This document shows, one piece after another, positions 1-3,000 of a DNA stretch of 64,000 nt. How positions within the stretch are numbered: the stretch's first letter is position 1; every line of letters starts with the position of its first letter. The stretch is from the IMG/VR virus record IMGVR_UViG_2718218100_000001; one strand, written 5' to 3'. A program made the position numbers. The stretch is from a virus (lineage: Duplodnaviria > Heunggongvirae > Uroviricota > Caudoviricetes).

Positions 1-3000
1 GTAGTAATGGTCATAACCTCCGCTTTCTCTTTTGGCTCTGGATGCTCTCACTCGTGCTCTTCTTAACATCCTTAACAGTGGGTGGGTTTGTACTTTGTTC
101 GAGTTTATTATCTGTGAGGATAGTAATTCCCTGCGCTCTGTCTCTGCCTCTTTGGTGACCGCTATCACTGATAAATCCCAATCGTGTTTGCTAATTAACG
201 GTGCTTGGAACGGGGTGATTGGTGATCGATTTATGTCTTGTCGTTTCAATGTACGCTGTATCTGTCGCTTAGCTTTGTAGTTGTCTTTCCTTGATGCCTG
301 AACGGCTTTTAGTATGCGTCTTACAGCATGAAAGCCAGTGATAGAAAGTGTTTCTTTTTTTATCTCATGCCGCGCCCAGCCATTCGAATAACCCCAAACG
401 TTGGCATCTGACCAATCATATAGGCTCTTGCTCGCCTCTCTATTAAAGTCATTTAACTTAGTTTCGGGCTTTGCCATGTAATCAATCTGTTTACCTATAC
501 ACTTTGTAGGCTCTGAATATTGCTGACCTTTCAAATCTAGATCCCACTGGGGAGGAACATTTGATGGGATTGCATTGTTTGCCAGTGTTACCCATTTGCT
601 GACAATTTTGCCAGCTTGCCCATTAATGCTTCTTTCGTTCACCATGATTATTGCGTGTACATGCGGCTCTGACTGGTGTTGAGCCCACTCCATGACGTAA
701 ACCCACTGATTGCCTTGAATGAAAGCGATATTGCATCGCTTGATACCAGAGTTCAGTCGCTGGAATCGCAGGTTTCAGACCATGAAACGCGCATTAATGC
801 TCTGGAGTATGCCACTACGCGCAAGAAGTCAGAGGTTGTTTACTCTGGCGTATCAGTAACCATCCCGACAGCGCCGACCAACCTTGTTAGCCTGCTGAAA
901 ACGCTTACGCCGTCATCCGGGACGTTGGCACCATTCTTCGACACCGTTAACAACAAGATGGTTGTGTTCAACGAGAACAAAACCTTGTTCTTCAAGCTGT
1001 CGATTGTCGGGACGTGGCCCAGCGGAACCGCCAACAGGTCAATGCAGCTAACATTCTCCGGTTCTGTTCCTGACACGCTAGTAAGCAGTCGCAACTCGGC
1101 AACAACAACCGACAACATCCTGTTAGCTACGTTCTTCAGCGTGGATAAAGACGGCTTTCTTGCCACAAATGGCAGCACGTTAACCATTCAGTCGAATGGC
1201 GCGGCGTTTACTGCCACAACCATCAAAATCATTGCGGAGCAGTGATGGAAATAAAGCTCATCGATAACCCGGTGAAACTTGCAGAATTCCTTAACAACCC
1301 GGTAAACACGGGGAATATCGTAGACAGTGGAGATAAATACTACATCAAGCCTGATGCGGTATATCTCGGCATCTACGAAGGATTAGTGCTGGCTGGAGTT
1401 CATGAAGTGCGTAACTTCTGGCATAGCGTTGTTGAATGCCATGCGGTGTATGACCCCGGATTCCGTGGCGAATATGCACTACAAGGGCATCGATTATTCT
1501 GCAAATGGCTTCTCGAAAACTCACCATTCCTTAACAGCATCACCATGGTTCCTGACACCACCAAATACGGACGGGCAATTATCCGTTTGCTTGGCGCTAC
1601 CCGTGTTGGTCACCTTGATGATGCGTACATGAGTAACGGAAAACCGGTAGGAATCACCCTCTATCAATTACCTCGTTCGAAATATGAGGAGCTATTAAAT
1701 GTTAGTACTTAGCGAAAGCTTCAAGAATAAATTGCTTCCCATGAATGGGTATATGAAAGGCGGCAGCGACTCCGGATCTAAAGCCCAGGCACGCGCAACT
1801 GAAAAGGGCATCGAACTGCAGCGTGAAATGTGGCAGACGAACATGCAAAACCTTGCACCGTTCACGCCACTCGCTCAGCAGTACGTATCACAGTTGCAGA
1901 ATCTTTCCTCTCTTCAGGGGCAAGGTCAGGCGCTTAACCAGTATTACAACTCTCAGCAGTATAAAGACCTTGCAGGGCAGGCGCGCTATCAGAGTCTGGC
2001 AGCAGCAGAGGCAACGGGTGGATTAGGCTCTACAGCAACAGGAAACCAGTTAGCAGCAATCGCACCTACACTCGGTCAAAACTGGCTGTCAGGTCAGATG
2101 AACAACTACAACAATCTGGCAAATATCGGCCTTGGTGCTCTTACAGGTCAGGCAAACGCCGGACAGAACTACGCTAACAATGTCAGCCAATTGTATCAAC
2201 AGCAGGCGGCAGCATCGGCAGCAAATGCGAATAAGCCTTCAGGCCTACAGAGTTTTGCTACAGGTGCCATTGGTGGGGCCGCATCAGGTGCAATGATTGG
2301 TAGTGCAGTTCCTGTTATTGGGACTGGTATTGGTGCTCTTGCTGGCGGTGTTATCGGTGGTCTTGGATCATTGTTTTAAGGTGGGAATATGGCTACTTGG
2401 CAACAAGGAATCAACTCAGGCGGTTTTCTTGCTGGTATCGGTGGGCAAAACTCAAATGCGCCAAAGGCAAGTGATGTAAGTGAGGCGTTGGCCTATATTC
2501 GCCAGAACAACGAAATGGAGCGTTCAGGTCGCAATAACATCGGCCTTCAGGCGTTGCAGGGACTTGGTAGTGTCGCTCAAACATCTCAAGCCGCAAAGCA
2601 ACAGGAAGCGGATGCTGCATTCCAAAAAGAATATGCGGCAGCCATCCAGTCCGGCGATCGACAGCAGGTTCGAGATCTGATGACCAAATATCCTGGTCAA
2701 TTAGAGAAGATTCAGTCTGGTATGAAGTGGGCAGACGAAGACCAGCGCAATTCTATCGGCACCTTAGCGGCTGGCGCACGCCTTGCGGCCTCGTCTCCAG
2801 AAGCAATGCAATCATGGCTGCAAAACAACGCCAAGGAACTGGCGCGCGTCGGTGTTGACCCTAACAACGTTGCTCAGATGTATCAGCAGAATCCTTCAGG
2901 GTTTGGTGAGTTTGTTTATCACCTTGGGATGGCTGCTCTCGGTCCGATTGACTACTTCAATGTTCAGGACAAGATGGCTGGTCGTGAGATTGACCGAGGC

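Follow-up and report, generated by a model that had tools for sequence, protein, structure and literature searches.

The window analysed here, a stretch of 64,000 nucleotides from the IMG/VR virus record IMGVR_UViG_2718218100_000001, opens on its minus strand with a frame that contains no stop codon over positions 1 to 693. Its product (MEWAQHQSEPHVHAIIMVNERS...RESGGYDHYY on translation) carries an HxH motif close to its apparent start. An initial annotation described this frame as an edge-truncated ORF, missing from the ORF track, that could encode a replication or mobilisation nuclease of the element at the left of the window. The question raised by this locus is whether a nuclease gene is simply cut by the window edge or whether the frame has a different origin.

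The frame itself is real. On translation it stays open from position 774 to position 1 (258 codons), with the upstream stop at 777..775. A stop-free run of this length is improbable by chance, and a close match to a known protein also argues for a real frame: a search of 5.8 billion proteins aligned the translation over the whole fragment with P0001, an E. coli protein of 350 aa (97% identity, E = 2.6e-148). The absence of the frame from the ORF list has a single cause, as the list that was used omits ORFs that touch a window end. The window is E. coli O157:H7 chromosome, and positions 1-700 share 100% identity with many O157:H7 genomes. In the identical RefSeq record, the three nucleotides immediately to the left of position 1 are the TAG stop of the frame. 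The last codon in the window thus encodes the true C-terminal Tyr, the edge removes only the stop codon, and completing the ORF upstream of the window, as the initial annotation had proposed, adds nothing further.

The ORF is truncated as first described, but at its 5' end rather than at the edge. P0001 reaches 119 residues further N-terminally than the 231-aa fragment, and the product appears to begin at the HUH region because the first 112 codons have been deleted. No ATG, GTG or TTG was found in frame between the upstream stop and position 693, and both candidate starts listed in Table 1 are internal Met codons of the full protein. PGAP uses the second of these for a 215-aa 'hypothetical protein', which would be without the HUH motif. 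Scans of the 231-aa fragment alone against Pfam, NCBIfam and PHROGs gave nothing useful, with no Pfam match and one strong match to PHROG 30534 ('unknown function', 215 profile positions), which covers residues 17-231 from end to end. The extent of this PHROG is that of the truncated 215-aa ORF.

Table 1. Features at the left end of the window (positions in the window; residue and codon numbers of the full-length protein)
Feature	Position	Strand	Remarks
rep remnant (very probable), codons 113-350 of 350	1..716	-	716 nt, no gaps, 12 mismatches against the 3' end of MIN14 rep
Motif III, Tyr191-Met-Ala-Lys194	469..480	-	Invariant in alignment A3; predicted helix 185-192 and its continuation
Tyr191	478-480	-	Predicted catalytic nucleophile, with Lys194 as predicted general base; roles by analogy with CRESS Reps (PMC8780604)
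PGAP start of 215-aa 'hypothetical protein' WP_000245915.1	643..645	-	Met136; CDS at 11998..12645 of locus L001
HUH motif, His130-Val-His132	655..663	-	Invariant in A3; predicted strand beta3; predicted metal ligands
Invariant Glu121	688-690	-	Strand preceding HUH (A3, model)
First canonical start of the remnant frame, ATG	691..693	-	Met120; internal Met, not the native start
Deletion junction (very probable), rep codon 113 / tail-needle codon ~107	716..717		Three-way alignment
Sf6-type tail needle knob gene remnant (P22 gp26 homologue)	717..1245	+	~106 N-terminal codons missing
Rest of P22-like remnant: DUF2824 gene (gp14-like), DNA transfer/ejection protein genes	1245..3525	+	RefSeq annotation, identical record
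intS, integrase of the P22-like prophage remnant, adjoining argW	3700..4857	-	RefSeq annotation
tRNA-Arg (argW)	5019..5093	-	3' end bears the att core TTCGATTCCTGCAGGGGACACCA, common to island and prophage

The identity of the intact protein was approached through its full-length homologues, which are 324-350 aa long and include Klebsiella relatives of 324-347 aa at 55% identity. P0001 matches the Pfam family PF23343 (REP_ORF2-G2P) at 29.7 bits, above the gathering cut-off of 27.8, and three further full-length members scanned singly (P0007, P0009 and P0010) fall just under that cut-off at 26.2-27.3. When 14 sequences, down to approximately 20% identity, were aligned for motif analysis (A3), 13 of them matched PF23343 at E <= 0.01; the best relative reached E = 6e-10, and the exception is the truncated copy in the window. 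The clade is small, as an exhaustive search of 1.84 billion cluster representatives returned only 21 relatives at E <= 1e-3. An NCBIfam scan gave no model for the full-length family, and sequence searches of the PDB with the single protein and with the family profile gave no match. In PGAP annotation the intact gene already bears the name 'rolling circle replication-associated protein', so that the family has both a Pfam model and a PGAP name.

The full-length relatives in A3 contain three Rep motifs in Rep order, namely motif I, HUH and YxxK. Motif I reads GxPYxxTLT, with G80 and T86 nearly invariant; P129, H130 and H132 of the HUH motif are invariant and are preceded by an invariant E121; and Y191 and K194 of motif III are invariant. 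The HxH of the sequence HVHAIIMV, which had drawn attention to the frame, is therefore a true HUH motif with both His invariant. The histidine triad to which it was likened is absent, as the first His of HQSEPHVH is not conserved; H126 is replaced by a gap or another residue in 7 of the 14 sequences. It had also been suggested that a Tyr-containing motif be sought downstream, and the invariant Tyr-x-x-Lys (IDYMAKP) lies 59 residues after HUH. Lack of a conserved catalytic Tyr motif, or a match to a non-nuclease family, had been named as findings that would speak against a nuclease; what we found was a conserved YxxK and matches to REP_ORF2-G2P.

To place these motifs in three dimensions we used an AlphaFold2 model of P0001, which has a mean pLDDT of 72.6 and values of 87-95 across residues 60-140. 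The modelled order is beta1-alpha-beta2-beta3, followed by the Tyr-bearing helix. Motif I lies on strand 81-87, E121 ends strand 115-121 and HUH lies on strand 130-137, while Y191 ends helix 185-192 and K194 sits just ahead of helix 195-208. In the C-terminal half of the protein the model predicts helices that stand apart from the nuclease core. Foldseek gave 62 matches against BFVD at E <= 1e-3 (best 3.8e-9), and those with names are ORF2/G2P-domain proteins, a gene-A-type Rep, microvirus initiators and CRESS Reps. Against the PDB there was no match at E <= 1e-3; the top fold matches, at E 0.01-0.2, are nearly all HUH nucleases, comprising parvovirus NS1, pMV158 RepB, nanovirus, geminivirus and circovirus Reps, and IS608 TnpA. 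Based on this model, P0001 is predicted to have an HUH fold like that of viral Reps.

In CRESS Reps, the Thr of motif I keeps the metal ligands in position, a Glu on beta2 is the third ligand and the Lys/His of motif III is the likely general base (PMC8780604). The catalytic roles of the motif residues in our protein would follow by analogy. Like the Reps of PCV2, wheat dwarf virus, nanovirus (M-Rep) and pMV158 (RepB), the model places a Thr on beta1, a Glu on beta2, HUH on beta3 and the Tyr/Lys pair on a helix (PMC8780604). The structural similarity to this group is weak, however, at E 0.01-0.2 and a TM on target of at most 0.59; sequence similarity is undetectable, and our protein has no SF3 helicase domain. 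With PF23343 the full-length relatives share the motif order uuTu, HUH, YxxK, and the predicted fold matches that of ORF2/G2P-domain and microvirus Reps. The clade nonetheless differs from PF23343 in that the match is marginal (26-30 bits), the clade is small and it resides in an integrative island instead of an ssDNA phage; it also adds a helical C-terminal half of ~110 residues and an N-terminal extension of ~75 residues.

The genomic setting of the intact gene was found in E. coli MIN14, where rep, which encodes WP_435367417.1, lies in an island of ~10.3 kb between 26-bp direct repeats of the argW 3' end (TTCGATTCCTGCAGGGGACACCATCC). The island begins with a P4-type tyrosine integrase, a 251-aa ORF that overlaps the int end, and AlpA; three small ORFs (one HTH), rep and ~520 nt of conserved non-coding DNA follow, and then a variable cargo on the opposite strand, a 58-aa ORF and a 208-aa serine recombinase. 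GC-rich palindromes and TGACGT inverted repeats lie within the conserved non-coding DNA, at 11502-12020 of locus L007. The same backbone occupies argW in Klebsiella pneumoniae with other cargo; one of its products, an HNH protein, matches the candidate defence family PDC-M68A. The MIN14 and Klebsiella islands thus both show the combination expected of alpA-type satellites (PICI/PICMI), an integrase, AlpA and an own replication gene within an att-bounded island of ~6-15 kb. PADLOC returned nothing for the 470-aa cargo protein of O157, the MIN14 cargo proteins or the small conserved island ORFs. No paper describing the argW island, or PF23343 by name, was retrieved in our literature search. O157:H7 keeps the rep-distal half of the island, that is, the conserved non-coding region, the 470-aa protein, the 58-aa ORF, the recombinase and the distal att; int and alpA are deleted in the window. 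Searching O157 for a second att core, either exactly or with three mismatches, did not find one; alignment then revealed it as a degenerate attR with a 1-nt deletion. The early proposal that the gene belongs to the left element is borne out by the RefSeq context and by the MIN14 island.

Of the two activities first proposed for the product, replication and mobilisation, the first fits the motifs. Judged from its sequence, the intact protein is very probably a Rep-class (replication-initiator) HUH endonuclease and not a relaxase, and it would act as the rolling-circle initiator of the excised island. An improbable alternative is that the intact protein is a mobilisation relaxase that nicks an oriT on the island for transfer by a conjugative element, in which case the island would be an integrative mobilisable element and the copy in the window would still be a remnant. 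MOB relaxases of the MobA/VirD2-like family PF03432 do share the common HUH core fold, and a weak match to Pfam Relaxase covers residues 76-145, from motif I to HUH, at E = 0.005; with 17.5 bits it falls short of the 24.6 required by the cut-off, and only one of the 14 members matches. The catalytic Tyr of relaxases lies N-terminal to a three-His (HxDxxxxHxH-type) motif. Our family instead has the Rep-type order, with the Tyr C-terminal to HUH, no conserved Tyr upstream of it, only two conserved His and no conserved third His. Rep-class HUH proteins do act as relaxases in some elements, MOB_T being an example (bioRxiv 10.64898/2026.01.13.699239), and this lends the mobilisation reading some plausibility. 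The combination of int, alpA and an int-overlapping ORF is, however, the layout of a phage satellite such as PICMI, and neither a coupling protein nor any other transfer gene is present in the island.

We then return to the copy in the window, for which the Rep assignment describes the ancestor rather than the present state. DNA identity to full-length rep runs from the stop codon to window position 716 and then ends. From position 717, which is position 58 of the query used, the + strand is that of a tail-needle gene and shares 94-96% identity with the gene of phages Louie, Kapi1 and Sf6; this tail-needle remnant is flagged as a pseudogene by PGAP. In a three-way alignment the joint is abrupt, with no microhomology at 716|717. 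Of 5,426 complete E. coli genomes, 308 contain an end-to-end match to a 200-nt probe that has the joint at its centre. Among the matches listed, the end-to-end carriers are all O157:H7 or unserotyped, and the other genomes match one side only, either rep up to 716 or the tail needle from 717. Window positions 1-716 are very probably a 5'-truncated remnant of the rep gene of the ~10.3 kb argW island, left behind by a deletion.

What remains of the gene retains E121, HUH and YxxK. It is without a promoter, the native start, residues 1-112, all of motif I/beta1 and the first helix, with homology beginning only at codon 113. A sigma-70-like site was sought upstream on the minus strand (694-1300) and none was found; nor is there a good or convincing ribosome-binding site ahead of either internal ATG. 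The frame would still encode the HUH and Tyr motifs but probably not a foldable nuclease core, and the remnant is almost certainly inactive as a nuclease. The view of a nuclease in the window that is merely cut by the edge therefore gives way to that of a 5'-deleted pseudogene.

Could the remnant nonetheless still be in use? A product of 231 aa (from Met120) or 215 aa (from Met136) would keep the helical C-terminal half, which is predicted to stand apart from the nuclease core, and might hamper related islands or phages on entry, or act by binding the conserved non-coding DNA downstream. In favour of this reading, no stop interrupts the 238 native codons that remain, O157 has kept the ~520 nt of conserved DNA that follow rep, and a pN/pS of 0.38 for the remnant against an intact allele would fit residual constraint. 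With only 12 differences behind it, this ratio is uninformative, the clonality of the O157 genomes makes the open frame weak evidence, and the missing promoter-like and ribosome-binding sites also count against expression. In addition, the same rep gene has decayed independently elsewhere: as a Rad52-like::Rep fusion beside another P22-like remnant (P0006, locus L009), as an integrase::Rep fusion (P0011), and through loss of the Tyr motif in an in-frame deletion (P0003). Such independent decay in other lineages points to loss of function rather than retention, and we regard continued use of the remnant as very unlikely.

The origin of the junction is suggested by intact arrangements elsewhere. 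In several E. coli genomes, among the IMG/VR prophage calls, the island lies directly downstream of a P22/Sf6-like prophage, in the order phage early-left genes and xis, hybrid att (CTGCAGGGGACACCATCC), island integrase. Intact prophage-island tandem arrays with a hybrid att thus exist in other E. coli, which suggests that the O157 junction is a deletion inside such an array. The phage genes of O157 (tail needle, gp14-like, ejection, and intS by argW) are oriented exactly as would be expected of the int-proximal end of such a prophage. In the proposed sequence of events, an O157:H7 ancestor would have had an IntS-type P22/Sf6-like prophage and the island as a tandem array at argW. A single illegitimate deletion spanning tens of kb, with its ends at tail-needle codon ~107 and rep codon 112, would then have removed the bulk of the prophage, the att site between the two elements, the island int, the int-overlapping ORF, alpA and the small ORFs, together with the promoter, start and motif I of rep.

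Before this loss, the intact Rep may have worked as is proposed for its family. His130 and His132 on beta3 and Glu121 on beta2 would hold a divalent metal, with the motif I Thr on beta1 positioning them, and Tyr191, with Lys194 on the next helix, would nick one strand at an island origin. Tyr191 would stay on the 5' phosphate, while the 3'-OH would prime rolling-circle copying of the excised island.

How, then, should the parent island be classified? Like PICMI, PICI and P4-like satellites, it has a tRNA-adjacent tyrosine integrase, alpA and one replication gene in ~10 kb. Its int-overlapping ORF recalls the iolg of PICMI, which also overlaps the int end, and it shares with alpA-type satellites a variable cargo slot, which in Klebsiella holds a candidate defence gene. 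PICMI satellites use a primase, and the SatelliteFinder models for PICI and PICMI include a primase or primase-helicase module (PMC10803314). The replication gene of the argW island, in contrast, is a predicted HUH Rep, and the island ORFs showed no primase domain. The island also differs from alpA-type satellites in having an extra serine recombinase at its far end, and no packaging or capsid-remodelling genes were recognised in it.

Tentatively, and with more doubt than confidence, we propose that the parent element may be an undescribed enterobacterial family of phage satellites or 'hitchers' that replicates by Rep-initiated rolling circle rather than with a primase, possibly helped by the IntS-type P22/Sf6-like phages that repeatedly share argW with it. 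Under this proposal, rep would be destroyed recurrently once an island is domesticated for its cargo, and the O157:H7 ORF would be a fossil of that process. The tandem arrays with P22-like prophages at the common argW att site would be circumstantial evidence for excision, replication and packaging induced by a helper phage.

A further candidate, a gene II-type replication protein of an integrated filamentous (inovirus-like) prophage, draws on the construction of PF23343 around ORF2/G2P replication proteins of ssDNA phages and on the fold matches to microvirus and other phage Reps; it is hardly credible for an intact 10.3 kb element that has a P4-type tyrosine integrase, AlpA, variable cargo and a serine recombinase but no coat gene, Zot-like assembly ATPase or other morphogenesis gene. 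An IS200/IS605 Y1 transposase was rejected on the lack of a Pfam Y1_Tnp match, fold matches that are weak only, and the context of an att-bounded integrase island.

The ORF in the window is very probably an ordinary dead gene remnant, and the parent island is the sole mildly novel aspect of the locus. For annotation, our analysis identifies WP_000245915.1 and PHROG 30534 as the tail of a probable rolling-circle Rep pseudogene fused to a tail-needle pseudogene. The junction very probably marks the single deletion by which a tandem array of prophage and island at argW collapsed in the O157:H7 lineage, and its presence in 308 of 5,426 complete genomes makes it a clean lineage marker. More broadly, argW of E. 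coli and Klebsiella is home to a small and little-studied family of islands that have a predicted HUH Rep and cargo that is variable and partly defence-like. Should the island prove to be a phage satellite, the repertoire of alpA satellites would gain a type with a rolling-circle Rep.

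The distal attachment site (att) of the island is retained in O157, with a 1-nt deletion in its core that shortens GGGG to GGG (~8465-8487, left of the window, in L001, the identical O157:H7 RefSeq record). Outward of this site, the place of dsdC/dsdX is taken by a DUF4942 fragment and by the csc sucrose genes. Given that the integrase gene has gone and the att is damaged, the prophage-island composite of O157 is immobile at its site.

The P22-like remnant beside intS was itself reduced. A shortened ejection-protein gene (378 aa) runs nearly straight into intS (window 3525-3700). 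Phage Louie and related phages have a gp16-type ejection protein, a tailspike and immunity genes at this site, and the remnant has none of them. It therefore underwent at least one additional internal deletion. On the 5' side of argW, from 5289 to 64000 of the window, lies a Stx2a-converting lambdoid prophage, and thus mobile DNA flanks argW on both sides.

Features of the argW region and of related island loci (~, approximate)
Feature	Locus	Position
Stx2a prophage integrase	Window	~5289-6458
stx2A	Window	~29870-30829
stx2B	Window	~30841-31110
IS1203 (IS3-family) insertion, splitting the gene that adjoins the major capsid gene	Window	~42544-43757
Very large LPD38-domain protein	Window	window end
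Conserved non-coding region, MIN14	L007	11502-12020
Conserved non-coding region, O157	L001	~11480-11997 (just left of window)
O157 cargo: 470-aa unknown protein	L001	9916-11328 (left of window)
MIN14 cargo: 330-aa and 821-aa unknown proteins	L007	12292-15746
Klebsiella cargo: HNH PDC-M68A candidate defence gene and two small ORFs	L002	11327-12766
Cargo in another E. coli: ParA/CbiA-like ATPase	L009	9505-10569
Rad52-like::Rep C-terminus fusion (P0006)	L009	8001-8768

Downstream of rep, O157 and the E. coli MIN14 locus (L007) share ~520 nt of conserved non-coding sequence, the first ~290 nt of which are partially conserved in Klebsiella as well. This region contains GC-rich imperfect palindromes (GCGCGGAGCGCGGCAAGCGCCGCGAGAGGCGC and AGCGCATCGCGCT) and a ~60-nt AT-rich stretch between inverted TGACGT-containing repeats (L007 11790-11910). 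It could serve Rep as an origin or nick site, and O157 still has it. The cargo between rep and the serine recombinase differs from island to island, and most of it in the four islands has no match in PADLOC or Pfam; this slot resembles a hotspot for cargo or defence genes. At the integrase end of the MIN14 island, the integrase gene shares its last 8 nt with a 251-aa ORF that matches nothing in Pfam (L007 7099-9133), an arrangement recalling the 'integrase-overlapping gene' (iolg) that PICMI satellites need for excision.

In other E. coli lineages rep has been destroyed independently. The Rad52-like::Rep fusion adjoins a different P22-like remnant, with gp16, Mnt/Arc and a tailspike head-binding domain, while P0011 joins the N-terminus of the island integrase to the Rep C-terminus and P0003 has lost the catalytic Tyr motif through an in-frame deletion. 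This recurrent loss hints that, after fixation of the island, rep can be dispensed with or carries a cost.
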